The position numbers were made by a program, and so were the translations under genes. The notes beneath the pieces are model-generated. The model saw only the letters and a program-made list of their open reading frames with translations, was not told where the DNA came from and ran no database searches. Positions 5,587 to 59,617 of a stretch of DNA of 64,000 nucleotides are shown in pieces. Every line of letters begins with the position of its first letter. Position 1 is the first letter of the stretch. Source of the DNA: Pseudomonas phage PhiPA3. Location: the sequence record HQ630627.1, one strand, 5' to 3'.

Positions 5587-7059
5587 CTATTTCGGTAAAA
5601 TGAACTGCGTATAGGGAGAGCAGTAGATCGCAGCTCCACCCTCTGCTACAAACACAGTTGAGTATGAATAGGCTAACGGTCCATTCGCAACGATCAGAAG
5701 TTCAACCTTAACCCCGTCACACGATACCCGATTGAGTTGATTCCGTGAAGGAATGTCTTGCGCTAAGACCAACTTGATCTTAACCTTACGTCCTTTGTAA
5801 TCAATCGGAATATCGAGATGCGAGGTGTTCTGGGTAATAGTCTTCTTCAGTTGAGTGACCGTCTTCTTACCGGCCTGTACAGTCTCGTAGAAACTGTCGG
5901 TAATGTCGATTTTGCCAACCGACTCTCCAAGGGTACCAGCCAAGTAATCCGTCAAACGGCGTTCAAGAATATTGAATTCTCCAACTGCCTCGTTAGACAT
6001 CCTGGGTGGATTGAGAGTCCGACTAATCAACGCCATTTCTGGTGTTGACAGCACGCGGATATCATCGTGACGCATGAGTCCAGACAAACCCATAGATTCA
6101 ATCCGTTGACGCTGTTTGGCACTAAAGCAGTTGGCCAGGTTTAGAATACCCAGCTCGGGCATATCACTCCCGTAGGCTTCAGTGTGGATTTTAATCAACT
6201 CTTCAATGTACTCTTCAGCTTCATTGGCTTTGTAGACACCGAAGGTTGCCTCAGAAATCCTTCGTCCAAGTAAAAGATCTGATTTAGCAAGTTTATCTTT
6301 GGCCGTGTCCTTTGGCCGCAGGCCAGCATTATGCATTCGTCCAAGATTATACATGTAGTAGAACCCATCATGGGGCTTACCACTGTTAATCATGAACAGC
6401 AACCGAGACTCCATGATCAACGGACTCACCGGCTTCTTTTTCAATTTGTTGATGGCGTCGCCTTCAACTACTACCTGCACAGGCTCTGCCGTTTTAGACC
6501 CACCCCCCCTCAAGGCGTTTATATCTGCCTTGTCATTGCCCATGTCGCCGGAGTGACCCTCTACCCAAGTCATCTCCAATTTACGACCACCATTAATCCA
6601 CGCATCGCGTTGACTGATGAGATCCAACCAGAGTTCTTTGTTGGGCACTGGAGTACCATCTGGTTTAATCCAGTTGTTTTTAATCCATTTGGGTGACCAT
6701 TGCGTCAGTCCTTTGCGCACGTACTCACTGTCGAGCAACATGGTCAACTGTTTAGCTGGGGTACCAAGGGCGATTTTAAAGCCATTGATGGCAGCGCTAA
6801 GTTCTGCCGTGTTATTGGTCGGGCGATCAACGACCTTACCAAATGCATCGATATAGTCGATCACTGTACAAGTGTCTTCGACGCCAACATCCTTATAGCC
6901 TTTCGCCGTAGGTTGTTGTTTGGTTGCAGCCTTTGACTTCATCGGTGTGTCGGTGTAGGTATACCCGTGCACGCCCCAACCTGCTACGTTCTGACGAAAC
7001 GACCCGTCAGTATATAGCACAATACCATCACACATTGAATGTTCCTCTGTCGTTTCCAT
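5587..7059 (-). CDS. RNase HI-domain fusion protein (N-terminal RNase H, roughly 300-aa unknown C-terminal domain)
   Basis: The N-terminal 190 aa align motif by motif to E. coli RNase HI: 'IVLYTDGS', 'TNNTAELSAAINGF', 'LLDSEYVRKGLTQW...PVPNKELWLDL', 'WVEGHSGDMGNDKADINA'. These include the DEDD catalytic residues. Confidence 0.8.
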   Translation of the reverse strand: METTEEHSMCDGIVLYTDGSFRQNVAGWGVHGYTYTDTPMKSKAATKQQPTAKGYKDVGVEDTCTVIDYIDAFGKVVDRPTNNTAELSAAINGFKIALGTPAKQLTMLLDSEYVRKGLTQWSPKWIKNNWIKPDGTPVPNKELWLDLISQRDAWINGGRKLEMTWVEGHSGDMGNDKADINALRGGGSKTAEPVQVVVEGDAINKLKKKPVSPLIMESRLLFMINSGKPHDGFYYMYNLGRMHNAGLRPKDTAKDKLAKSDLLLGRRISEATFGVYKANEAEEYIEELIKIHTEAYGSDMPELGILNLANCFSAKQRQRIESMGLSGLMRHDDIRVLSTPEMALISRTLNPPRMSNEAVGEFNILERRLTDYLAGTLGESVGKIDITDSFYETVQAGKKTVTQLKKTITQNTSHLDIPIDYKGRKVKIKLVLAQDIPSRNQLNRVSCDGVKVELLIVANGPLAYSYSTVFVAEGGAAIYCSPYTQFILPK

Positions 7060-11921: not shown

Positions 11922-11969
11922 CAACCTTATGTAGTTTCAAACCTCGATATCCCCTTAGTGGAGCTCAAA

Positions 11970-13712
11970 ATGGCCCGTGTTAAACTGTTTCAAATGATCA
12001 ATGCGATCTCAATGGAAGACGTCGAGAAAGCTAACGACGCAAACGTAGAAGTTGAAGGTAAGAAAGACCTCGAACCGCAACTCAAAGGCGATGAAGGTGA
12101 GAAGCCTAACGCAGATGACGTTGATGCCGCTGTTACCAATACCCAAACTACCGAACCGGGTCCGTCCGAAGGCGGTGGCGACGGTACCGCTCAGACTGTT
12201 GACGTGAATCACGTTGAGTCCAGCGATAAAGTAGAAAACCATGTTAAGCCCGTTGACCAAGCCAACAATGGCGAAGGTGACGACGCTCCGGAAAAAGTCA
12301 ATGCTGACGACGATAATGTCGCCACCACTACTTCCGTAGAAGAACATGATAACGACGGTCTGCAAACCATCGAGTCTGGTGAAACCGAATGTGTCGGTGA
12401 AGCGGATGACCTGGTTATGGACATCGAAGAAGTCACCAATGACGTAGATGCTTCCGGTATTACTGAAGCCATCGATTCCAAGTCGGATGCCGTTCAGGGT
12501 ATCGTTGAAGAAATCCGCGAAATGGAAAACGTTGAAGCGGCCGTAGAATCTTACCTGGGCGTTCTGCGTGGCATGCGTAACCGTGGCACCGAGATTTCCC
12601 CGGAACTGCAAGAGACCATGCGCATCGGTCTGGAAGCCATGGATTCGACCTTCTTCAAAGGCTCTGTGGTTTCTGTTGAAGACATCGATGATGGTGAAGG
12701 TCACAAGACTGCTCGTGACGCTACTGAAAGCAAACTGTCGGCTAAAGCTAAGCAGATCTGGGAAGCTCTGAAGCGTGCCTTTATGCGTGCTCTGGCTGCT
12801 CTGCAAGACGTATTCGTTTCCGTCATGAATAACGCCGGCAAACTGAAAGAACGTCTGGGTAAGCTGCGCTCGGAAGTTAACGTTCTTGAAGGTGGTAAAG
12901 AAGTCAAAGTTGCCAACGCCATGGGTCTGTCCATGAATGGCGAGTGGGTAGGTGACTCAGATCAAGGTCTGAAGAACATTCGTCGTACCGCTGACGAAGC
13001 CCTGCTGAACTTCCCCAGCAAACTGGCTGATGGTCTAGTTGCACTGAATCGTCGTTATCGCGACAAAACTCAGGAAGGCATCGAAGCCTACGAAGAAGCC
13101 ATCAACTCGGTTATCAAGATCTACAACCAGTCCTTCACCAGCTTCAAGTCCAGCAATGCTCGTGGTGAAATCACCGATATTGACACCAGTCGCTACAACC
13201 GTATCCTGCTTGGTCCAGTAATGCCGGGTAACCGTGTTCTGGCAGTAGCTTTCAGTTCCACGAAGACTGAAAGCGGCGGTTCTGCTGTCGGTGACACTGA
13301 AGCCAAGAACCTCACCAGCGTGATCAAAGAGAAGCTCGCTACCCTGAACAGTGAAGCCTACTCCGGTACTGTGAAAACCCCGAGTGCTTCTGAAGCACGC
13401 GCTGTTGTTGCTGCTCTGGAAGGTATCGTGGATAGCGTACTGGCTCGTAACGAAGGTCGTACTTCACTCAAGAAGCTGGCTAACATGGTTCAGGGCATCG
13501 CTCAAAACCGTAATGAGAATCCGAGTGCTATGGCCAAAACTCAAGGTGGTCATTGGGTTGACCAGATTGCTATCTCGGTAGCTCGTCGCGCCCTGGAAAC
13601 CAACCACGAGTTGATCGCATACATCATGCGCACCATCAAGACCTACATTGGCTTCCTGGAAGCCAGTATCAAGGCCGAAGCTGGTGGTGAAACCATCAAC
13701 CAAACTGCTTAA
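11970..13712 (+). CDS. hypothetical virion protein with strongly acidic N-terminal 170 aa
   Basis: ATG 11970 with GGAG 6 nt upstream (the track starts at GTG 11958). 'TTATGTA' motif at 11929-11935. D/E-rich N-terminus. Confidence 0.6.
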   Translation: MARVKLFQMINAISMEDVEKANDANVEVEGKKDLEPQLKGDEGEKPNADDVDAAVTNTQTTEPGPSEGGGDGTAQTVDVNHVESSDKVENHVKPVDQANNGEGDDAPEKVNADDDNVATTTSVEEHDNDGLQTIESGETECVGEADDLVMDIEEVTNDVDASGITEAIDSKSDAVQGIVEEIREMENVEAAVESYLGVLRGMRNRGTEISPELQETMRIGLEAMDSTFFKGSVVSVEDIDDGEGHKTARDATESKLSAKAKQIWEALKRAFMRALAALQDVFVSVMNNAGKLKERLGKLRSEVNVLEGGKEVKVANAMGLSMNGEWVGDSDQGLKNIRRTADEALLNFPSKLADGLVALNRRYRDKTQEGIEAYEEAINSVIKIYNQSFTSFKSSNARGEITDIDTSRYNRILLGPVMPGNRVLAVAFSSTKTESGGSAVGDTEAKNLTSVIKEKLATLNSEAYSGTVKTPSASEARAVVAALEGIVDSVLARNEGRTSLKKLANMVQGIAQNRNENPSAMAKTQGGHWVDQIAISVARRALETNHELIAYIMRTIKTYIGFLEASIKAEAGGETINQTA

Positions 13713-37960: not shown

Positions 37961-37984
37961 GTTTAGATATCGATGGAGTTAACT

Positions 37985-40900
37985 ATGGCCAGCAAAAAGA
38001 CCACGCTGCCAAAGCCCAAGGGGATCAATCCCCAAGGGTCTATTGTTCAGCTTGATCTTGACGACTTTGATGATCTGTTTGACGAAGACTTCGGATTGCC
38101 CAAAAAGAACAGTCCGTATACGGACTTCAAATCGGGCCTGAAGAGTGGATTCCTCGACAAATTCAAGACCACCACGGTTCTCAAGAACTTCCTACGTCAT
38201 GCAGCACCAGATGGATTCAACCGCTTGTTCGGCGTGTATGATGATCTTGTTACCAGTGCAAAAGACATCAAGGATTCTGTTGAGCGTACCAACGCTGCTG
38301 ACTTGGATTATCTGGGTCGTAAGGCAAAGTCTTATTTGCCGTACCTGGAAAAACACATTCCTAATACGCTTTACAAATCGATGGACGAAGGTCTGTCGCG
38401 TAAGCTTGAGCAATATAACTACGAAATGGAAGCTGGTCGTGACCAGATTGCCATCCGTAAACGGGCTCAGCAAGCTGCTGATGAAAATGAAATCAAGGCA
38501 GCACTCGACCAGAACACCCTGGTAAGTAAAGAGAACTTCCAGCGCTCCGAGCAAGGCATTATTAAACGTGCCGCCATGGAGAAGGCTGAAAGAAATATTA
38601 GGGATAAGATTTCCGCAGGTCGTTTCGATTTTACATCTCGTGCAATGAGCATGGCTGTAGACAGCCTGACTCGGATCTCTGCTTATCATGAGCAAGTAAG
38701 CTACGGGATGCAACGTAAGAGTCTGGAACTTCAGTTCCGTTCTTACTTGGGTATTCGTGATCTGGTTCGCCTGACAGAAGCCAACATGGAACTTCAGGAC
38801 CGTGCTTTCCAAGCATTGGTTCGTAACACTGGCATCCCGGAACATAAGAAAGCGGGCATGGGTAGTGGTTTACTTGGCTTTGGTGACGGTAGAGGTAATG
38901 CCAGTTTCGCTAAAGCCTTGGCAGGAGCCGCTTTCTCCACTCTTCCTGGCTTCATGGGGAACTGGGGTGGTCAGGTAGAAGATCGAGTTAAGAAGTCTCT
39001 CAGTGGTCGCTTGGCAGACATCGTTTCGGCTGCTCGTATGGGTGAGGGGGCTGGTTCCTTCTGGGATCAGCGTTACAATCTTGCCGGTATGATGGCTGGA
39101 GAATTTGGTTCTGATGTAATCAATGATCACATTGCCCCATGGCTGGGTTCTAAACTCCGACCTGGTGCTACTAGGTTAGCCCAGCGATTTGGTGGGCGCC
39201 ATAACCAACTGAACTATACGCTGGACAATATCCCAGCCTTCTTGCAAGAGTTTGTTAACAACTCGCAAAACCAGTACGGTTGGAAAGGCACCGTCCGTGA
39301 CATGATAGCTCCGTTCATCCCTCAGTTCTCCTTAAAGGACCGACTGGATAATGGAACCTATCAAACAATTGACCAGCAAACTGCTTTTAACCAGTTGACA
39401 CAACGGTCGATCACTGAAGTCATTCCTGGCTTACTGTCACGTGCAGTACAGGAACTGCGTATGATCCGTACTGGCCGTAATGATGTTGAGCGGGAAGTCT
39501 TTGACATCACTACTGGTAAATTTACGGTTGAGAAAACTGCTCAAGACAACGTCATGCATCGCGTTATTCCCAAGACGGCTATTCGTAACACGTCCGGAAT
39601 GATCAATGATGCACTCAATAACCTCGATCAAGAAGGTCAGTTGTCTCCAGCGGCACGTAAAGCTCTCAGCGAGAGGTTACTGCGTGATGCTTCAACTAAT
39701 CGTCGTTTTGACCCTAACGCATATATCCGTGCTGGGGGTTACGCTGATGGTCTGTCGCCGGATGTTACAAACGAACTCAGTCAGTTCTTCCGTGGGAAAT
39801 TCCAGTTCGACGACAAAGGTAAGATGACGGATACCGCGGCCAACCATCAACTCCGTGATGAGTGGTCTCGGGCTTTCTTGGACATTCGTAGTGTTTCACG
39901 TGATCCGATAAAAGAGATTCATCGCCTGGTGAACGCCGGTCATACCGAATCTCTGCGTATGCTCGGTATCATCGTTACTGAACAAGGTCAGGATAAGATC
40001 AACTACAACCGCGTTTGGGAAATCCTGCGTAGTGGTGTTTCGGATAACAATCCGTACGCTGGTGGTCCGATGCCTGATCCGGAACAAACGGGTACTCCTG
40101 GCGATAAGGGTTTTGTTGGTCCTGCCTATCCAGGTGCTGCGAAAGCTGGTGCATTAAATGCGATGGTGAGATTCCGTCGTAAATATGCCCCTGAAGAACA
40201 ACGCGCTCGTGACGAGTGGAACAAGTTTGCAAACAACATGCGTGGTCGTTACGGTTCCGCTGCTGACCAAATCAGGGAAGCTGGCGGTTTCGGAGACTGG
40301 ACCAATTCGATGTATGGTCGGTATAGCCCGAAAGTATCCGGGATGGCCACCGACGTAGTCGAACGAGCTAAAGCGTTCGCTGAGCGCCATAAGCCCGGTG
40401 CTGTTGATAGCATGATGAGTCGAGCCAAGGCTCTGGCTGGAAACTTCTTCCCCAACGGCCTTAGTGCTGGCGGTGTGTTGGATGCAGCCATGGGTTATGG
40501 GAAGAGCGCATATAGCCAGGCTATGTCGCAGATGCCTGGGATGAACGACGCCGCTGGCTCGTACGTCCAAGAGGGAATGAATAAGATCATGGACTTGTAT
40601 TCCAAGTTCGATCCGAAAGTACCCCTTATCAAAGGCACCGATTTCATCCAAGGTAAGCTCATTGACCTGAACACCAAGAAAGTCATTACGAAACCCAGTG
40701 ATATCACAGGTGCTGTGATTAACATGGCTGGTATGACTGTCCTCACAGCTCAAGAAGCTGCAAACGGTCTGTTCGATATTACGGGTCAGATGGTCATTAA
40801 GACATTGACCAATAATGGTGATATCTCTAATGCCGTATCTAAAAATACTGGTGGAATGGGTGCTGCTGCGAACGACGCAGAAAATCCTAACGAGGAGAAA

Positions 40901-43900
40901 GACCTAGAGGAACAAGACTGGTGTATCGACGGTGATCCGGATCCGATTATCACATCCCGTGGTCTGAAGAACGGTTCGTATTTCGATTCGGTAACAGGTG
41001 ACGTGGTTACGAAGCTGAACGAAGTTAAAGGAGATATTCTTGACAAGTTCGGTAACATCGTAGCGACAGCTAAAGAACTTGCAGTTGGTTTGATCTCTCG
41101 GAAAACGGGTAAGCGTTGGCGTTTGAAGAAAGGCCCGAAAGCCATTCTGAACATCATGGGTAAACTGGGTAAGTTTGGTAACATGACAGCTCACCAAGCT
41201 GCCTGGGGTATGATTAAGTTTGGTGCTAAGGCTGCCTTAGGTATTGCCTCAAAAGCATTTAACTTTGTGGTGGAAACACAGAACGCTTATCTGCCTGATT
41301 CTGATGACCCTGTATTCGAACGTCGTAAGTGTCATAATGGCGAATACTTCGATGAGAAGGGTAATGTGATCGAGAACTTCGCTGATGTCTATGGACAAAT
41401 CTACGATGCCAAAGGAGAACCCATTCTACCATTAGAACAGTTCAAGGATCTCATTAACTACGACGGCACTAAACATATCCTGGCTAAGAACAAAAAGCTT
41501 ATTCGACGTACATTAAATCGCGGCATTCGAGCTTTGCGAAAGAAATACGTCAACATGTCTAAGCGTTATTGGAAATGGTTGGGACGCACCAGCGCCAAAC
41601 TTGCCCCCAAGGTGGGTAGAAAACTCCTCGGCGGTTTTGCTAGCGCCGGTGGAGCTATCATGAACCGTCTTGTGGAGCGAGTTCCTTACGAAGACTTTGA
41701 AACGACGGATCAAGTATTGTTGGGTCAGATCCTGGAGACTCTACGGGGTACTCAGGAACAGCAAGTCCGCGAAGGTAGCTGGCAAGATCAAGCCGCTAAG
41801 AAAGCAGAAGCCGCAGAACGAGAAAGCCTCTTTGGAAGCTTAGGTGGACGCAAAGGCGAAGGTGATCAAGAGAAAGCCCAGAACATCTTCATGAGAGGTC
41901 TAACCAAGGGACTGCAAAGTGTCTTTAGTAAGATCACTGGTAAAGATGCTGATGAAGATTCCGGTATCATGGATCTCATCTTGGGTGGTGGTAAGAAAGG
42001 CGGTGGTAAAGGTCGATTGGGTGGGATGCTGGCTCGTGCAGCTCCATACGCTGCGGCCGGTGCTGCTACAGCGGTAGGTACAGCCATTACCGCGAAGAAG
42101 TTCAATGATCAAGGATTTGACGGCAAGGAAAGCGGCTTACTCACCGCACTGTCGGCAACAGCTCCGGGCAAGTTAATGACGGACTGGATCATTGCTCCAA
42201 CCATGTTGAAATTCAAGAACGTTGACAAATTGACGAAGCCGTTCATTCTGCTTCGGATGGCGCAGTACGGTATTACTGACCTTGATCAACAGAGTAAGAT
42301 CTTTACTCTTGAACAAGAGTTCGAGAAATCCGCAACACGTGGTGAACGTTCTGACATCAGCATGGAAGCCGTAGGTGCGAAACGGGTATTTGAGATTCTG
42401 GATATCAAACCAGATGACAAAGCGCGTATCAAAGCGATGGCTGATTGGTTACAACTTCGTTTCCGACCGATCTTCAACGCCTATCTGAACGCTCTGCATT
42501 CAGTAGACAAAGATAATATCAATGTCACTGAGATGGACGACAAGCTCCCCAATGAGTTAAAGGGTGCTGTACTGGAAAAAGTGAAGTTCCCGATGCTTGG
42601 GGATACGCCGTACCAGTACCGGATGAGTCCGTTCGATCCAGAAGGCAAGCTGGAAGATACAACTGCGGATATCACGGAACGCTTTGAGAAGTACACCAAG
42701 ATGTTTGCAGGGGTTAAGGCCCTAGCTTTAGCGAATAAGAATAAAGTCGCTAGAGACAAGGCCATGGCAGGCGAAGCTGCCAGTACTGTTCAGGATGCAG
42801 CTAAAAAGGCTGTAGACACGGCAGTTAAAGGTAGCCCGCTGAGTATGGTTGCTCCCGGTGTTCCTTCACCATTGGCTCCAGTAGATCCGAAATCTAAGAT
42901 GCAACTCAAGACAGCCTTGGGTGGCACTGCGGTAATCACTGGTGTAGGTAAGCTAGGTAGTTCTCTGACTGGCCTACAGGCAATCCGTATGCGGGCTTAT
43001 GGTCTGCAAACGATGGCCTACTCTGACGTACAAGCGTTGCTGTCGTTGGAGGCCAGGTTTGTAGAAGGTCTGAAGATCAGTAACGGCGAGGCAAATTACA
43101 CAGGGGATACGGAAGATCTGATTCAGACTACCGCCCCACTGTTTGGTAAGGACCCTTCCGATGGATCGAAAGATAGAGTTGGGTACGTAAACTGGTTACT
43201 GTATCGCTTTGCTCCGGCATTCCGCGCATACATGCTAGCCTCTTCCCAGTTTGCCCCCAGCGCCAACCTAAATGGATTGGAATCCAAGCTCAAGCCTGGT
43301 GATAAAGTAACTGTTGCAAACGCTGTATTGGGTGCTGCTGATGGTGGGAATTCAGTCTGGAAACAAGCCAGTATCTTCGAGATCAAAGGAGACCCTGAAG
43401 ATCTTAAGAAATTGGCCGAAGCCGACTTGGAACACTTAAAGCAAGAAGCAGAGAAAGACATTGCTGCTTCCCCAACTCAATCAGCGGGTTCTCAGGCTGC
43501 TGGTAAGGCAGCTGCTGATGCCGGTGGTTCATTTGCCGACAAAGCAGTAAGCAGTATTAAGAATGCCTGGGAGAAGACGAAAGACACCGCTGCAACTGCT
43601 TGGCAAAATACCAAAAATGCAGTGAGTGCTGGCGTTGACAACGTCATGGACATGAAAGATGCGGCAACGTATCGCATGGGTCTGGCGGGCGAAGTCAAAG
43701 CAACAGGTAATACCTACGGGTCTCTAGCCCAAGGTAATGGTGGTCAGTGGGAACAAATCCCCATGCCTAAGCAAAACAAATCCGCAGCAGCTGCTCGTGA
43801 GACGCTGTCGGTTGTAGCGCAAATGGTGGGGGTACCTGTTGAACTGTTGATGATCTTCTGTGCTATCGAGTCCAGCTTCGACTGGAATGCTCGGGCAGGT

Positions 43901-44944
43901 ACGTCTAATGCATCTGGTTGGTTCCAGTTCATTAACAGTACTTGGGACGGCATGATCAAGAAGTACTCGGCTAAGTATGGTTTACCCGCCGATACGCCAC
44001 AGCGGAGTCTCCGGATGGATCCTCGGATCAACGCCCTGATGGGTGCCGAGTTCGTCAAAGAGAACTTCACGATCCTGCAAAATGCGTTGGGTCGTGCTCC
44101 GACTGACGTTGATCTGTACGTTGCACACTTCATGGGGCCATACGGCGCTAAGAAGTTCCTGATGAAAGATCAGAACTCCATCGGTGCCGCTGTATTCCCG
44201 AAAGAAGCCGCTGCTAACCGGACAATCTTCTACAAGAACAAAGGTACTGGTCCTGCCCGTACCCTTGGTGAAATCTATCAGACCTTCGAATCCTTGGTCG
44301 CTCGTTTCCGTAAGATGGCGGGTGGTACCGGTTCGGACGTTAAGATGCCACAACAGCCTGGTGAAGAGAAATCTTCTCAGGAACTTGCTGAAGAACAATC
44401 CAAGCAGGCTGCAAAATCTGGGAGTGCAGCAATTAGTGCATGGGATGTGGATACCTCTGACAATGCCAGTGATGCTGCCGTCGCAAGATCGGAAGCCTAT
44501 CTGGCAAATCAGGGTAAACCACAAGTACCGGTTTTACCGGGTATTACCCCCATGTCCACTGCGCCTGTACCGGCTGGCACTACATCGCCAGATGGTACGC
44601 AGACTGGTGCAACGCCATCTGCGGATTCAGGCGTGAGTGTGGCTGCTGCTGGTACGAATGCACGTGTGGAAGCTGCACAACAGCAAAACACCATTCGCCA
44701 GCATGAGATTCGTCAATCGCAACAAGTTCAACAGAAAGCAATTGATGTGCAAGGTGAGCAACTCGCAATCCTCATCCAGATTCGAGATCATCTCGCTATT
44801 CTGGTTGCCGCTGCACAATCAAAAGGTTCTATTGAACAGCAACAGGTACAGACCGGCAGTGCAGGAGGCGGTAATAATATGACCTCTACTCAACGCACCA
44901 GCCGGCCGGCCCTTGATCGGCCATCACCGCTGAAGCTGCAATAA
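37985..44944 (+). CDS. giant virion-associated protein (about 2,320 aa) with C-terminal lytic transglycosylase (SLT/lysozyme-like) domain; phiKZ gp181-like
   Basis: SLT motifs 'ELLMIFCAIESSFDWNARAGTSNASGWFQFINSTW' and 'AHFMGPYGA' at nt 43790-44190, with catalytic Glu in 'AIESSF' at about 43868. Followed by a Q-rich coiled C-terminus. ATG 37985 with GGAG upstream (the track starts at 37973). Confidence 0.85.
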   Translation: MASKKTTLPKPKGINPQGSIVQLDLDDFDDLFDEDFGLPKKNSPYTDFKSGLKSGFLDKFKTTTVLKNFLRHAAPDGFNRLFGVYDDLVTSAKDIKDSVERTNAADLDYLGRKAKSYLPYLEKHIPNTLYKSMDEGLSRKLEQYNYEMEAGRDQIAIRKRAQQAADENEIKAALDQNTLVSKENFQRSEQGIIKRAAMEKAERNIRDKISAGRFDFTSRAMSMAVDSLTRISAYHEQVSYGMQRKSLELQFRSYLGIRDLVRLTEANMELQDRAFQALVRNTGIPEHKKAGMGSGLLGFGDGRGNASFAKALAGAAFSTLPGFMGNWGGQVEDRVKKSLSGRLADIVSAARMGEGAGSFWDQRYNLAGMMAGEFGSDVINDHIAPWLGSKLRPGATRLAQRFGGRHNQLNYTLDNIPAFLQEFVNNSQNQYGWKGTVRDMIAPFIPQFSLKDRLDNGTYQTIDQQTAFNQLTQRSITEVIPGLLSRAVQELRMIRTGRNDVEREVFDITTGKFTVEKTAQDNVMHRVIPKTAIRNTSGMINDALNNLDQEGQLSPAARKALSERLLRDASTNRRFDPNAYIRAGGYADGLSPDVTNELSQFFRGKFQFDDKGKMTDTAANHQLRDEWSRAFLDIRSVSRDPIKEIHRLVNAGHTESLRMLGIIVTEQGQDKINYNRVWEILRSGVSDNNPYAGGPMPDPEQTGTPGDKGFVGPAYPGAAKAGALNAMVRFRRKYAPEEQRARDEWNKFANNMRGRYGSAADQIREAGGFGDWTNSMYGRYSPKVSGMATDVVERAKAFAERHKPGAVDSMMSRAKALAGNFFPNGLSAGGVLDAAMGYGKSAYSQAMSQMPGMNDAAGSYVQEGMNKIMDLYSKFDPKVPLIKGTDFIQGKLIDLNTKKVITKPSDITGAVINMAGMTVLTAQEAANGLFDITGQMVIKTLTNNGDISNAVSKNTGGMGAAANDAENPNEEKDLEEQDWCIDGDPDPIITSRGLKNGSYFDSVTGDVVTKLNEVKGDILDKFGNIVATAKELAVGLISRKTGKRWRLKKGPKAILNIMGKLGKFGNMTAHQAAWGMIKFGAKAALGIASKAFNFVVETQNAYLPDSDDPVFERRKCHNGEYFDEKGNVIENFADVYGQIYDAKGEPILPLEQFKDLINYDGTKHILAKNKKLIRRTLNRGIRALRKKYVNMSKRYWKWLGRTSAKLAPKVGRKLLGGFASAGGAIMNRLVERVPYEDFETTDQVLLGQILETLRGTQEQQVREGSWQDQAAKKAEAAERESLFGSLGGRKGEGDQEKAQNIFMRGLTKGLQSVFSKITGKDADEDSGIMDLILGGGKKGGGKGRLGGMLARAAPYAAAGAATAVGTAITAKKFNDQGFDGKESGLLTALSATAPGKLMTDWIIAPTMLKFKNVDKLTKPFILLRMAQYGITDLDQQSKIFTLEQEFEKSATRGERSDISMEAVGAKRVFEILDIKPDDKARIKAMADWLQLRFRPIFNAYLNALHSVDKDNINVTEMDDKLPNELKGAVLEKVKFPMLGDTPYQYRMSPFDPEGKLEDTTADITERFEKYTKMFAGVKALALANKNKVARDKAMAGEAASTVQDAAKKAVDTAVKGSPLSMVAPGVPSPLAPVDPKSKMQLKTALGGTAVITGVGKLGSSLTGLQAIRMRAYGLQTMAYSDVQALLSLEARFVEGLKISNGEANYTGDTEDLIQTTAPLFGKDPSDGSKDRVGYVNWLLYRFAPAFRAYMLASSQFAPSANLNGLESKLKPGDKVTVANAVLGAADGGNSVWKQASIFEIKGDPEDLKKLAEADLEHLKQEAEKDIAASPTQSAGSQAAGKAAADAGGSFADKAVSSIKNAWEKTKDTAATAWQNTKNAVSAGVDNVMDMKDAATYRMGLAGEVKATGNTYGSLAQGNGGQWEQIPMPKQNKSAAAARETLSVVAQMVGVPVELLMIFCAIESSFDWNARAGTSNASGWFQFINSTWDGMIKKYSAKYGLPADTPQRSLRMDPRINALMGAEFVKENFTILQNALGRAPTDVDLYVAHFMGPYGAKKFLMKDQNSIGAAVFPKEAAANRTIFYKNKGTGPARTLGEIYQTFESLVARFRKMAGGTGSDVKMPQQPGEEKSSQELAEEQSKQAAKSGSAAISAWDVDTSDNASDAAVARSEAYLANQGKPQVPVLPGITPMSTAPVPAGTTSPDGTQTGATPSADSGVSVAAAGTNARVEAAQQQNTIRQHEIRQSQQVQQKAIDVQGEQLAILIQIRDHLAILVAAAQSKGSIEQQQVQTGSAGGGNNMTSTQRTSRPALDRPSPLKLQ

Positions 44945-55004: not shown

Positions 55005-55439
55005 ATGAATTTTTTCGTTGATGCCGAATTCGACGTACCCACTGATAAACTAATCTCTTTAGCGATCGTCTCTGAAGACGGTAACCGTGAGTTCTATGAA
55101 GTTATAGACTATACTGGGATTCAGGATGAATGGGTAATGAAAAACGTTATTCCCATTCTTCAGAAGGAACCTGTATCGTTTGAAGAATTCCAAAACAGAT
55201 TGGCAAAGTTTGTGCAGCAATTTGCTGGCATGCACATTATCGTAAACCACCCGAATGATGTACTCTATTTCAACAGAGCTCTGTTGCAGGAGAAAGGTAA
55301 GTGGATTATGATTCAGCCATTGACTTTTGAGATCGACGACGACCTCAGCGGGAAAGGTTCCAAACTTTTACACAACGCGTTACATGATAGTCGAGCGACG
55401 CGAATCGACTGGCTAAAGAAGAACGGATTTCAGCCTTGA
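55005..55439 (+). CDS. DnaQ-like DEDDh 3'-5' exonuclease (144 aa)
   Basis: Exo I 'FVDAEFD', Exo II-like 'IIVNHPNDVLYF', Exo III 'LHNALHDSRAT'. 'TCTATGAC' motif upstream at 54973. Confidence 0.65.
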   Translation: MNFFVDAEFDVPTDKLISLAIVSEDGNREFYEVIDYTGIQDEWVMKNVIPILQKEPVSFEEFQNRLAKFVQQFAGMHIIVNHPNDVLYFNRALLQEKGKWIMIQPLTFEIDDDLSGKGSKLLHNALHDSRATRIDWLKKNGFQP

Positions 55440-56446: not shown

Positions 56447-59400
56447 ATGTTCGATACATTTCGCACGCTCTTCAGCGGACTAGACGTAAAAGAAACCGAC
56501 ACGGAGATTATCATCAGTGGTGTAGCTGCTAATGAGATCATTCGTGATATGGACAAGTTCTGGAAGACTACCAAGTTGACTGGGAACATGTTCAATAATG
56601 TCTCTCGTCGCTCGATGAGCTTCTATAAGTTCTTTGCTCCAGAAGTCATGTACATGCTGGAGAACATCAAACACTACCGGAATCGTTGGACGTCTATTAA
56701 GGCGATCAATGCGATTCGCGAAGCGTTGATGGAACATACCTGGTTAAAGGGTACCATTCCAGTTGATCCCAATACTGTACCTGGTCGTTTGGATCTACGT
56801 AAGCTCCAGAACTTACATTTTGACGCAATGACCTACCAGATGGAGTATTTCCAGAACTACTCCTATAGACTCGACCAATACGGTTTAAAAGGTGATCTGA
56901 TCGCAGCTGCTGCCGGCACAGGTAAAGCCCAGCCGCTAACTTCCATGGTCAAAGTACCGGGTGGTTGGAAAGCCATGGGTAATATTCAAGTAGGTGATGT
57001 TGTTACTGCTTGGGACGGTACTCCAACTAAGGTAACTGGCGTTTATCCGCAAGGAAAGAAACAAACCTTTACCGTCACCTTCAAAGACGGCCGGACCACC
57101 AAAGCCTGTGACGAGCACCTGTGGAATGTGTACTGCCAAGATTGGACCCGTTACGGTGGAACCGGGTGGCGCGTAATCAACACCTTGGAGTTATTCGGTC
57201 GTATCCAAAGCGGGAAACAACGGCTGTATGTGCAGTTGTGCAAATCCGAGGAAGGTATTGATGTAGAACTTCCCATTGATCCTTACAACCTGGGAGTTAT
57301 CCTTGGTGACGGATGCATCAGCTCAAACTGTGTGTCGGTGACTAGTGGTGACCCGCAGCTCTTCACAGAGTTCGCTAAAGCCCTTCCAGAAAATCTGGAA
57401 TTGATCACCCGTGATGACATCACGATGGGCGTAATCAACAAAAAGGGTGAACGTAATCCGTATACCAGTGCGTTGCGTGAGATGGGGCTACTTGGTGAGA
57501 ACTCACTGACTAAGTTCATCCCGCAAAACTACCTGATGGCGTCCACTGCACAGCGTTTGGCTTTGGTTCAGGGGCTGATGGACACCGATGGTACTGTTGA
57601 TGTTAACAGTAGCCTGAGTTTCTCGACCAGCAGTTACATGTTGGCCAAACAATTCCAGTATCTGATTCGTTCGCTAGGTGGAATCGCGAAGATCTCGTTC
57701 AAGGAGCCAACCTACACCTACAATGGTGTTAAACAGTACGGGAACATGTCGTACCGGGTACTTGTCCGCTTCGATGTGCCATCAGCTCTTTTCCGACTCG
57801 ACCGCAAGTTAGCACGGTGCAATGACAATCATCAGTACACGGAGAATCTTCGGTTGCAGATCAAGCATGTGAACGTGTCAGACCGGGTAGAGTGTCAATG
57901 CATTCAGGTAGAGCATCAGGACCACCTGTACGTTACCGATGATTTCATTGTGACGCACAACACCTACATGACTTCAGCCATTGCAGAAATGCGCAGTGCG
58001 GAGTTGATTGTTGTAATCTGCCCCAAACAAGCATTAGAAACCGTCTGGTTAGAATCTATCCCCGATATGTTCAAAGCCAAACAGAGCGTCTGGAGTTCAG
58101 CGAATAAACACGCTCCCTATAAAGGTGAGCGTTGGATTGTTTGCCACTACGACGCTATGGATCGACTGATCGAACTACTCCGTGATCAGCGAGTCTATAA
58201 AGGTAAACGGGTTGTAACTATCCTTGATGAATCCCACAACCTGAACGATCCAAACTCGGCTCGGTCTTTGTACTATCAGACCATCTGTAAGATCCTAGGT
58301 AGCGAAGACAATCTGTTTGCATCGGGTACACCGGTGAAAGCACTTGGCTCTGAACTAATCGGTTTACTGCGTGTGGTGGATGACATGTTCACACCAGCGG
58401 TAGAAGAACGGTTCCGCAAGATGTACGGTAAAGAAGCCAGTAAAGGTCTTGATATTATCCGTCATCGCTTGGGTCTAATGTCCTTTAAGGTGGAGAAGAA
58501 AGAAACTGGTCTCCAACCTCCGATCATGAAGCCGTATCCAATCAAGATCCCCAATGGGGAACTGTTCACGCTACCGATGATCAAAAAGGACATGGAGAAA
58601 TTCATCAATGAACGCTGGGCTTATTATAAGTCCCGTCGTCCGAATGATGAGAAACTCTGGAACCAGATGTTGGATATCCATCGCAAGTCACTCAAGACAC
58701 GCGATCAAGTCAAAGCCTTTGAAGACTACCTGCGTTTGGTAGAACTCGTTAAGCGTACTCCTGACCCTCGTTACATCGGTGAGGAAATCAAGGCAACGAA
58801 CGTTTACGAGAAGCGGATCTTTGAACCGACCCTTCCACGCACGATGATCCATCAGTTCCGTGACATCAAGTCCGTGATCAAATACACCAACCTTAAGATC
58901 CAAGGTGAATGCCTGGGTCGAGTGTTGGGTGGTAAACGGATTGAAGCGCACGTAGCGATGGTTCCGTATATCGATTGGGTGGGGATTGTTGAGTCTACTG
59001 AGAAGAAGACGATCATGTTCACAAGCTTCGTTGAAGCGGTGGAAGCGTCTGAAATTCACACTACTAAACTAGGGATGAAACCCACAGTTGTGTACGGTAA
59101 GACGACAGGGGATCTAGCAGGCATCGTTAAACGCTTCGATGAAAATAAGTCCATCAACCCATTGTTAGCAACCTTCGCTTCGCTATCTACAGCTGTACGC
59201 TTGACCATGGCTGACACCATGATCCTATTGAACTCTCCATTCCGTGCCTATATTCTGGAACAAGCCATCGCGCGTATCTATCGCATGGGTCAAGACTCGC
59301 AAACTTACGTCTACCAATGCACACTTGATACGGGGGAGGTTCCGAACATCTCTACGCGATCCGCTGACATCCTGGCGTGGTCTACTGCTCAAGTGGAAGC

Positions 59401-59617
59401 GATCATGGGTATCAAGTCTCCTCTGCAAATGGAGGATGCGGCCAGCTTTGAAAATCTAGCTGAAGAACTCAAGTACGATGAGAACCGAATCATGCATCGG
59501 ATTCTGGCTAATGCTTTCGAAGCGTATGGTATTGAAATTTCCCAAGAAGACTTCATTGTGAAGTCTGTTGTTAAACACAAACCTTTAGTGCCCGCATACA
59601 TGCGGTTCGGAGGATAA
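56447..59617 (+). CDS. SNF2-family (SF2) helicase interrupted by an intein (1,056-aa precursor; about 711-aa mature)
   Basis: Extein motifs: Walker A 'AAAGTGK/T' restored by intein removal, DExH 'ILDESHNL', motif III 'SGTP', SNF2 motif VI 'QAIARIYRMGQDSQTYVY'. Confidence 0.85.
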   Translation: MFDTFRTLFSGLDVKETDTEIIISGVAANEIIRDMDKFWKTTKLTGNMFNNVSRRSMSFYKFFAPEVMYMLENIKHYRNRWTSIKAINAIREALMEHTWLKGTIPVDPNTVPGRLDLRKLQNLHFDAMTYQMEYFQNYSYRLDQYGLKGDLIAAAAGTGKAQPLTSMVKVPGGWKAMGNIQVGDVVTAWDGTPTKVTGVYPQGKKQTFTVTFKDGRTTKACDEHLWNVYCQDWTRYGGTGWRVINTLELFGRIQSGKQRLYVQLCKSEEGIDVELPIDPYNLGVILGDGCISSNCVSVTSGDPQLFTEFAKALPENLELITRDDITMGVINKKGERNPYTSALREMGLLGENSLTKFIPQNYLMASTAQRLALVQGLMDTDGTVDVNSSLSFSTSSYMLAKQFQYLIRSLGGIAKISFKEPTYTYNGVKQYGNMSYRVLVRFDVPSALFRLDRKLARCNDNHQYTENLRLQIKHVNVSDRVECQCIQVEHQDHLYVTDDFIVTHNTYMTSAIAEMRSAELIVVICPKQALETVWLESIPDMFKAKQSVWSSANKHAPYKGERWIVCHYDAMDRLIELLRDQRVYKGKRVVTILDESHNLNDPNSARSLYYQTICKILGSEDNLFASGTPVKALGSELIGLLRVVDDMFTPAVEERFRKMYGKEASKGLDIIRHRLGLMSFKVEKKETGLQPPIMKPYPIKIPNGELFTLPMIKKDMEKFINERWAYYKSRRPNDEKLWNQMLDIHRKSLKTRDQVKAFEDYLRLVELVKRTPDPRYIGEEIKATNVYEKRIFEPTLPRTMIHQFRDIKSVIKYTNLKIQGECLGRVLGGKRIEAHVAMVPYIDWVGIVESTEKKTIMFTSFVEAVEASEIHTTKLGMKPTVVYGKTTGDLAGIVKRFDENKSINPLLATFASLSTAVRLTMADTMILLNSPFRAYILEQAIARIYRMGQDSQTYVYQCTLDTGEVPNISTRSADILAWSTAQVEAIMGIKSPLQMEDAASFENLAEELKYDENRIMHRILANAFEAYGIEISQEDFIVKSVVKHKPLVPAYMRFGG
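56927..57961 (+). mobile_element. Intein (345 aa) with LAGLIDADG homing endonuclease, inserted in the helicase P-loop between GTGK and T
   Basis: Block A-like 'AQPLTSMVKVPGGW..IQVGDVVTAWDG'. LAGLIDADG motifs 'LGVILGDGCIS' and 'LVQGLMDTDGTV'. C-terminal 'FIVTHN' followed by +1 Thr. The first residue is Ala rather than Cys/Ser. Confidence 0.8.

Follow-up and report, generated by a model that had tools for sequence, protein, structure and literature searches.

The helicase gene at 56447..59617 (+) of the window, by which we mean the whole 64,000-nt stretch of the Pseudomonas phage PhiPA3 genome (HQ630627.1) analyzed here, is interrupted in the middle of its nucleotide-binding loop. The interruption is very probably a class 3 intein that carries a LAGLIDADG homing endonuclease within it and is inserted between the Lys and Thr of the Walker A motif of a virion-associated helicase. 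The open reading frame (ORF) encodes a 1056-aa precursor of an SNF2/superfamily 2 (SF2) helicase, in which a 345-aa in-frame insert (nt 56927-57961 (+), protein residues 161-505) begins AQPLTSMVKV, ends DDFIVTHN and is followed by TYMTS; the VTHN is residues 502-505 and the +1 residue is Thr506. The N-extein (residues 1-160, 56447..56926 (+)) ends with AAAGTGK (residues 154-160, 56906-56926 (+)), the N-terminal part of the Walker A motif. The C-extein (residues 506-1056, 57962..59614 (+)) supplies the Walker A Thr, the ILDESH motif and Helicase_C. The precursor has a calculated mass of 120.5 kDa, the spliced 711-aa product 81.8 kDa and the intein 38.8 kDa.

Orthologous helicases lacking the insert fix both junctions

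Comparison by tblastn against phage genomes, followed by alignment, identified the host protein as the orthologue of phiKZ gp203 and 201phi2-1 gp300, with extein identities of 58-69%. Orthologues without the insert read GTGK followed directly by T(Y/F), with no gap or ambiguity, in phiKZ gp203, 201phi2-1 gp300, HPP-Temi, Phabio and two IMG/VR contigs. In an alignment of seven orthologues, which placed the limits of both exteins, phiKZ, 201phi2-1 and HPP-Temi lacked the insert, and the window, BRkr, PS119XW and SL2 carried it at the identical position. The junctions were equally clean at the DNA level. A first-pass annotation, made from the sequence alone, had placed at these coordinates a LAGLIDADG intein of this length and with these motifs, interrupting an SNF2-family helicase in its Walker A loop; translation and motif coordinates agreed with it to the base, and the intein-less orthologues, together with homology to class 3 inteins, upheld the identification. 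It had also proposed that excision of the VTHN-terminated insert restores GTGKT, and had named a different local alignment in insert-free homologues as grounds for doubt. Those homologues align exactly at the junction.

Removal of residues 161-505 in silico did restore GTGKT, and with it the helicase domain. The Pfam ResIII profile matched the unspliced protein at 23.6 bits (E 5.2e-5, profile positions 41-146); after in-silico splicing the match rose to 43 bits (E 5.9e-11) and extended over profile positions 6-146, spanning the junction. The spliced product also matched SNF2-rel_dom (E 2e-6) and Helicase_C (E 2.4e-7), and the precursor matched PHROG 62, DNA helicase, at E 4.5e-154. The protein thus has the elements of a helicase: a GTGK/T Walker A motif after splicing, a conserved DExH-type motif II (ILDESH) and Helicase_C. 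A 345-aa insert within GKT would abolish nucleotide binding and the extein frame is intact, which implies splicing.

The G+C content of the intein, 49.7%, is slightly higher than that of the exteins (44.8% and 47.2%). No second copy was found in the rest of the window by tblastn with the intein.

The insert has the sequence and predicted fold of an intein with an endonuclease

Beyond its absence from orthologues, the insert resembles known inteins in each of its parts. The first-pass annotation had described Hint-like blocks and two LAGLIDADG motifs. The latter came through in the profile search, where Pfam LAGLIDADG_3 matched intein residues 209-265 at E 2.5e-11 and Hom_end gave E 0.004. The Hint-type Pfam profiles stayed below threshold, and the HINT fold was backed instead by matches to PDB sequences, by the NCBIfam profile intein_Cterm, which scored above its cutoff (18.5 vs 15.6 bits), and by a structural model. 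Among PDB sequences, the N-terminal splicing region matched the gp41-1 intein (E 1.3e-10), Msm DnaBi1 (6bs8, E 5.9e-7) and Mch DnaB1 (6rix, E 1.2e-5), and the middle region matched PI-SceI.

We modeled the intein, extended by five residues of extein at either end, using AlphaFold2 and 68 homologues, obtaining a mean predicted local distance difference test score (pLDDT) of 95.1 and a predicted template modeling score (pTM) of 0.93. The best PDB matches to the model in Foldseek were intein homing endonucleases, TliVMA (1e-17), PI-SceI (1e-15) and PI-PfuI (7e-11), and the fold also matched I-DmoI. The splicing domain of the model aligned with the class 3 mini-inteins MchDnaB1 and Msm DnaBi1 at target-normalized template modeling (TM) scores of 0.77-0.80. 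Features general to inteins are thus found together: an in-frame insertion that orthologues lack, a HINT fold with blocks A, B, F and G, His at B10, a His-Asn end and Thr at +1.

The endonuclease splits the HINT splicing domain. Its first motif, LGVILGDGCIS (precursor residues 282-292, 57290..57322 (+)), was placed by motif coordinates and lies on helix H124-133 of the model, in model numbering, which counts the five extra N-terminal residues. The second, LVQGLMDTDGTV (precursor residues 373-384, 57563..57598 (+)), was placed by the LAGLIDADG_3 match. Two motif helices, each with its acidic residue, a match to a fold of the alpha-beta-beta-alpha-beta-beta-alpha type and a position inside the HINT domain are all as in LAGLIDADG endonucleases.

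The splicing residues are those of class 3

Class 3 inteins have no nucleophile (Cys, Ser or Thr) at residue 1, and have Trp at B12, Cys at F4 and Thr at G5 (WCT), with +1 usually Thr or Ser (PMC2807308, PMC3196547). Their hosts include DnaB, RecG, SNF2 and terminase proteins, mostly with insertion at an ATPase P-loop (PMC2807308, PMC3196547). The insert in the window starts with Ala1 (GCC, 56927..56929 (+)), as read from the translation and the family alignment, and has Trp66, Cys325, Thr343 and Thr+1, as well as His64 and His344-Asn345. Blastp against the class 3 prototype, the intein of mycobacteriophage Bethlehem, which we located at AY500153 7260-9971, gave an end-to-end alignment of residues 2-345 with 140-481 (E 8e-31, 29% identity).

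The block B core, CDEHLW (57107..57124 (+)), holds Cys61 (B7), His64 (B10) and Trp66 (B12), which align with Bethlehem Ser62, His65 and Trp67. In block F, Cys325 (F4, 57899..57901 (+)) aligns with Cys320, the residue after it, Ile326, with Ile321, and the block F aromatic, Tyr335, with Phe330. Block G and the junction, V-T-H-N/T (57950..57964 (+)), placed by the alignment and by intein_Cterm, align Thr343 (G5), His344 (G6) and Asn345 (G7) with Thr339, His340 and Asn341, and Thr+1 with Thr+1. Mutagenesis of the Bethlehem intein found His65, Trp67, Cys320, Ile321, Phe330, Thr339, Asn341 and Thr+1 to be important (PMC2807308). Every one of these residues has an aligned counterpart in the window intein, Phe330 as Tyr335. 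From the role assigned to its Bethlehem counterpart (PMC2807308), Cys325 is the predicted initiating nucleophile and block F branch point.

The start of the intein bears on its class. If the true first residue were a nearby nucleophile, such as Thr5 or Ser6 of AQPLTS, the Ala would belong to the extein and the intein would be of class 1. These two residues do lie close to the proposed start, and both BLAST and MAFFT left a two-residue N-terminal gap against the Bethlehem intein. The gap is explained by the presence of QPL in both sequences. The number of residues from residue 1 to the conserved Trp14, 13, is equal in the window (A1...W14), the Bethlehem intein (P1...W14) and gp41-1 (from C1), so Ala1 corresponds to the first intein residue. 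Moreover, the intein-less orthologues have nothing between GTGK and TY, and AQPL would stay behind in the Walker A loop if the intein began later; and 109 relatives in unrelated host proteins start with Ala directly after GK. With no nucleophile at residue 1 and no other junction that fits the orthologues, we consider a class 1 intein essentially untenable here. The concern in the first-pass annotation that the start had been misplaced can be set aside, given the junction fixed by intein-less orthologues and the gap-free register from residue 1 to Trp14.

The same annotation had taken the N-terminal Ala as a sign of a class 2- or class 3-like mechanism. The class 3 half of that suggestion stands, through WCT, Thr+1 and homology to the Bethlehem intein. 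In the class 2 mechanism, of the KlbA type, the +1 residue attacks the N-terminal junction directly, bypassing Ala1 without a block F intermediate. Ala1 is common to the KlbA inteins and this one, and is all that they have in common. Class 2 inteins, known only in KlbA, have Cys+1, Ser at G6 and Asp at F4 (PMC4031507, PMC3196547); here these are Thr, His and Cys, the host is a helicase, and the sequence homology is to class 3 inteins. We judge a class 2 mechanism extremely unlikely.

A second Cys, Cys323, lies two residues before Cys325, forming CxC in ECQCI (57890-57904). It is common to BRkr and SL2, and is found neither in PS119XW (ETQCI) nor in the family consensus.

The intein belongs to a large, uniform family

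A database search with the intein returned 595 relatives at E<=1e-5, and the best 120 were aligned together with the window intein (121 rows). This number of relatives and the match scores above argue that the identity of the insert is not a product of chance. The host proteins of the relatives were PhoH, DnaB, SNF2, RecA-like, AAA and ABC ATPases. Among the best 120, position 1 was Ala in 109 of the 112 with their N terminus present and position 2 was Gln in 102. Ala1 is therefore not unusual, being the consensus of the family. Every one of the 121 aligned rows has His B10, and all but one have Trp B12 (120/121). Cys F4, Thr G5, His G6 and Asn G7 are without exception (119/119 for each), and the residue at +1 is Thr in 102 and Ser in 17. 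Insertion was after GxGK in ~88 of the aligned sequences. By this alignment, the window intein is typical of its family, which is large and of class 3 throughout.

All 120 listed relatives were <=604 aa and did not include the ~1050-aa jumbo-phage helicases in GenBank, an absence that probably reflects the search or the selection of candidates rather than biology. A second insertion site was seen in ~23 of the best 120, after (M/L)RGR and before T(L/F), in PhoH-family ATPases (P0049, P0050, P0063, P0067, P0074 and others). Block B7 (57107-57109 in the window) is Cys in the window intein and in 104/121 of the aligned sequences.

Several points weigh against an active class 3 intein, and we set them together here. 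Two Pfam profiles for the splicing domain fell short of threshold, Hom_end_hint at E 0.004 and 17.5 bits vs a cutoff of 32.1, and Hint at E 0.16. The class 3 assignment is based on pairwise homology to proven class 3 inteins and on WCT in every near relative. Splicing, splicing competence and endonuclease activity are what we infer from the sequence. When WCT and Ala1 were grafted onto the class 1 intein gp41-1, splicing was not achieved (PMC7664689), which means that the signature residues are necessary and not sufficient. Finally, other alleles of the intein show decay in the endonuclease: motif 1 of BRkr reads LGVILGAGGIS, with GAG for GDG and thus without the Asp, and in SL2 the endonuclease is short by ~70 residues in the stretch from one LAGLIDADG motif to the other. 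With such decay in other alleles, activity of the window intein should not be taken for granted.

An alternative reading is an insert that is a decayed or non-splicing remnant, with the helicase either inactive or working despite it, as in the intein pseudogene Arth_1007 of Arthrobacter FB24. Inactive class 3-like inteins do exist (PMC3196547), and the endonuclease decay in BRkr and SL2 fits such an outcome. The Arthrobacter insert, however, is missing His B10 and Cys F4, whereas the splicing residues are all intact here and in ~119 relatives. Moreover, the exteins are those of a conserved virion helicase, full-length and sharing 58-69% identity with intein-less orthologues. A remnant is, in our estimate, very unlikely.

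Proposed splicing pathway

The pathway we propose is drawn by homology to the Bethlehem, Dra Snf2, Msm DnaBi1 and Mch DnaB1 inteins. In the 120.5-kDa precursor, with its P-loop split by 345 residues, proper ATP binding should be impossible. Ala1 would be unable to form the usual linear thioester. Instead Cys325, helped by His64, Trp66 and Thr343, would attack the Lys160-Ala1 peptide bond to form a branched intermediate joined by a thioester at block F. A thiol-labile branched intermediate has been detected for the MP-Be and Dra Snf2 inteins (PMC2807308), and a protease-like catalytic triad has been described for Cys F4, His B10 and Thr G5 (PMC7664689). Transfer of the N-extein to Thr+1 would then give the block G branched intermediate, cyclization of Asn345 would free the 38.8-kDa intein, and an O-to-N acyl shift would leave a 711-aa helicase whose GTGKT is whole again. 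Virions contain the orthologous protein, so splicing presumably comes before packaging.

Splicing might also be conditional, with a pair formed by Cys61 (B7) and Cys325 (F4) holding back both it and activation of the helicase through oxidation or zinc, by analogy with Msm DnaBi1. In that class 3 P-loop intein, a disulfide involving the F4 Cys causes reversible inhibition (PMC6195587), and the frequent Cys at B7 in the family alignment (104/121) may be meaningful, since the prototype has Ser there and class 1 inteins usually have Thr. The analogy is loose, however, in that the DnaBi1 partner, Cys48, is outside the splicing blocks, and B7 was dispensable in the Bethlehem intein (PMC2807308). On balance a switch of this kind is improbable. 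Its possible consequence, that Cys61-Cys325 disulfide or zinc pairing would gate maturation of a virion-packaged helicase by redox or metal state, or would allow splicing only after injection, we rate as quite improbable; if true, the intein would be a post-translational timing switch for an early-acting jumbo-phage enzyme. Cys61 should adjoin both Cys325 and the N-terminal scissile bond, where either a redox or zinc trap or a structural role is possible.

Proposed homing and allele replacement

Both LAGLIDADG motifs of the window intein (LGVILGDG and LVQGLMDTDG) keep their Asp, in GDG and TDG, and with these acidic residues in place the endonuclease looks intact. Such an endonuclease would cut intein-less alleles during co-infection, and repair would copy the intein in. 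The candidate cleavage target, from comparison of alleles, is the region GGTAC(A/G/T)GGTAA(G/A)/AC(C/A)TA(T/C) of intein-less genes.

Identities of exteins and inteins disagree from pair to pair. The window and BRkr share 68% identity in the exteins and 82% in the intein; BRkr and PS119XW share 98.9% in the exteins and 64% in the intein; and HPP-Temi, 93% identical to BRkr in the exteins, has no intein at all. Taken at face value, the disagreement indicates homing, and we propose that both it and the patchy distribution arose by homing and allele replacement between co-infecting phages. The mismatch between PS119XW and BRkr points to either independent invasion or replacement of one allele by another. 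The inteins of BRkr and SL2 appear, from their altered endonucleases, to be endonuclease-dead or decaying, which fits a homing cycle.

The PS119XW intein keeps the W, C and T although its first residue is Ser (SLRL...), which could in principle act as a nucleophile.

Comparison with known inteins

A close counterpart is the class 3 prototype, the Bethlehem MP-Be 'DnaB' intein (TerL1-c; AY500153), phage-borne like the present one and found in a terminase large subunit gene (PMC2807308, PMC5050341). The two share the architecture of a HINT domain with a LAGLIDADG endonuclease, at 341 aa there and 345 aa here. They differ in residue 1 (Pro there, Ala here), in B7 (Ser there, Cys here) and in the site, which is in the terminase there and at GK/T in the Walker A motif of an SNF2 helicase here. 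Another Bethlehem protein, gp52, holds a different intein, of class 1.

The Mycobacterium smegmatis and M. chimaera inteins Msm DnaBi1 and Mch DnaB1 (6bs8, 6rix/6riy) are class 3 inteins in a P-loop with Ala after GK, as here (PMC6195587, PMC7664689); for Msm DnaBi1, a primer given in PMC7664689 encodes the start G-K-A-L-A-L-D. These, however, are mini-inteins of ~130-145 aa without an endonuclease, in the bacterial replicative helicase DnaB, whereas the present intein, in the SF2 helicase of a phage, is full-size and its LAGLIDADG domain is apparently intact. The Snf2 intein of Deinococcus radiodurans (Brace et al. 2010), cited in PMC3196547 and PMC4031507, is reported as an experimentally verified class 3 intein in a Snf2-family helicase; it is on a bacterial chromosome, with a proposed phage origin, whereas the host here is a jumbo phage.

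Orthologous inteins, in the same gene and at the same GTGK/T site with the class 3 signature, occur in BRkr, phiHQ, phiLBG22, PA1C, PS119XW, HHBS36_1 and SL2. Identity to the window intein was 82% for BRkr, 64% for PS119XW and 54% for SL2. The window phage is of a lineage distinct from theirs, with exteins 68% identical or less and no nucleotide-level match. An intein in the jumbo phage MIJ3 is a class 1 split intein in PolB and different from the present one.

For a phage, a class 3 intein in an SNF2-type helicase, at the classic P-loop site, is an ordinary feature, its niche described in 2010. Descriptions of class 3 inteins since that year cover their Ala or Pro starts, WCT, a bias toward the P-loops of helicases and terminases and a phage origin proposed for them, and little changes scientifically with the present example. 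The copy looks intact in both its splicing and endonuclease parts and might serve as a natural full-length class 3 intein for protein engineering or homing studies. It may also serve as a marker of genetic exchange between co-infecting phiKZ-like phages.

Database annotation of the interrupted gene

The main use of the identification is in correcting annotation, where false family labels propagate among phage records. With duplicates counted, ~21 deposited jumbo-phage records contain the same intein allele. No intein label was found in the annotations inspected, those of BRkr, phiHQ, PA1C, PS119XW, SL2 and related records. Deposited labels for the gene include 'hypothetical protein', 'DarB-like antirestriction', 'RNA polymerase beta subunit' and 'terminase large subunit', and in some records the helicase is split as two coding sequences. 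In our PHROG scan of the precursor, the intein alone gave matches to 'terminase large subunit', 'DNA primase' and 'DnaC-like helicase loader'. The inconsistent labels look like annotation contamination driven by the intein.

Gene context

The assignment of the precursor gene as an interrupted helicase draws on the ORF list, tblastn, the orthologue alignment, Pfam, PHROG and gene order. Downstream lie matches to the virion-protein families of phiKZ gp202 and gp201, an arrangement that follows the gp203-202-201 order of phiKZ. Together with the internal head protein and the SLT-domain protein listed below, this marks the window as DNA of a phiKZ-like jumbo phage. Both orthologues, phiKZ gp203 and 201phi2-1 gp300, carry virion-protein annotation, reading 'DEAD/DEAH box helicase / structural protein' and 'putative SNF2 domain helicase; identified using mass spectrometry', respectively. 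This group of jumbo phages has been noted to encode a Swi2/Snf2-type SF2 helicase whose distribution tracks that of phage RNA polymerase subunits (PMC7824862).

At the nucleotide level, a search of INPHARED phages with the gene and 24 kb around it gave a sole match, 215 bp of phage Noxifer at 77.5%. An exact-match look-up of the precursor protein in public assemblies returned nothing. A scan of IMG/VR with the C-extein found four relatives, none above 67% identity and all without the intein. The lineage is apparently close to 201phi2-1, Phabio and the Pawinskivirus group.

Elsewhere, the window encodes a member of the phiKZ_IP internal head protein family (11958-13712) and, at 37973-44944, a protein of 2323 aa that contains an SLT lysozyme domain. 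RNase H-like genes lie at 5587-7059 and at 55005-55439.

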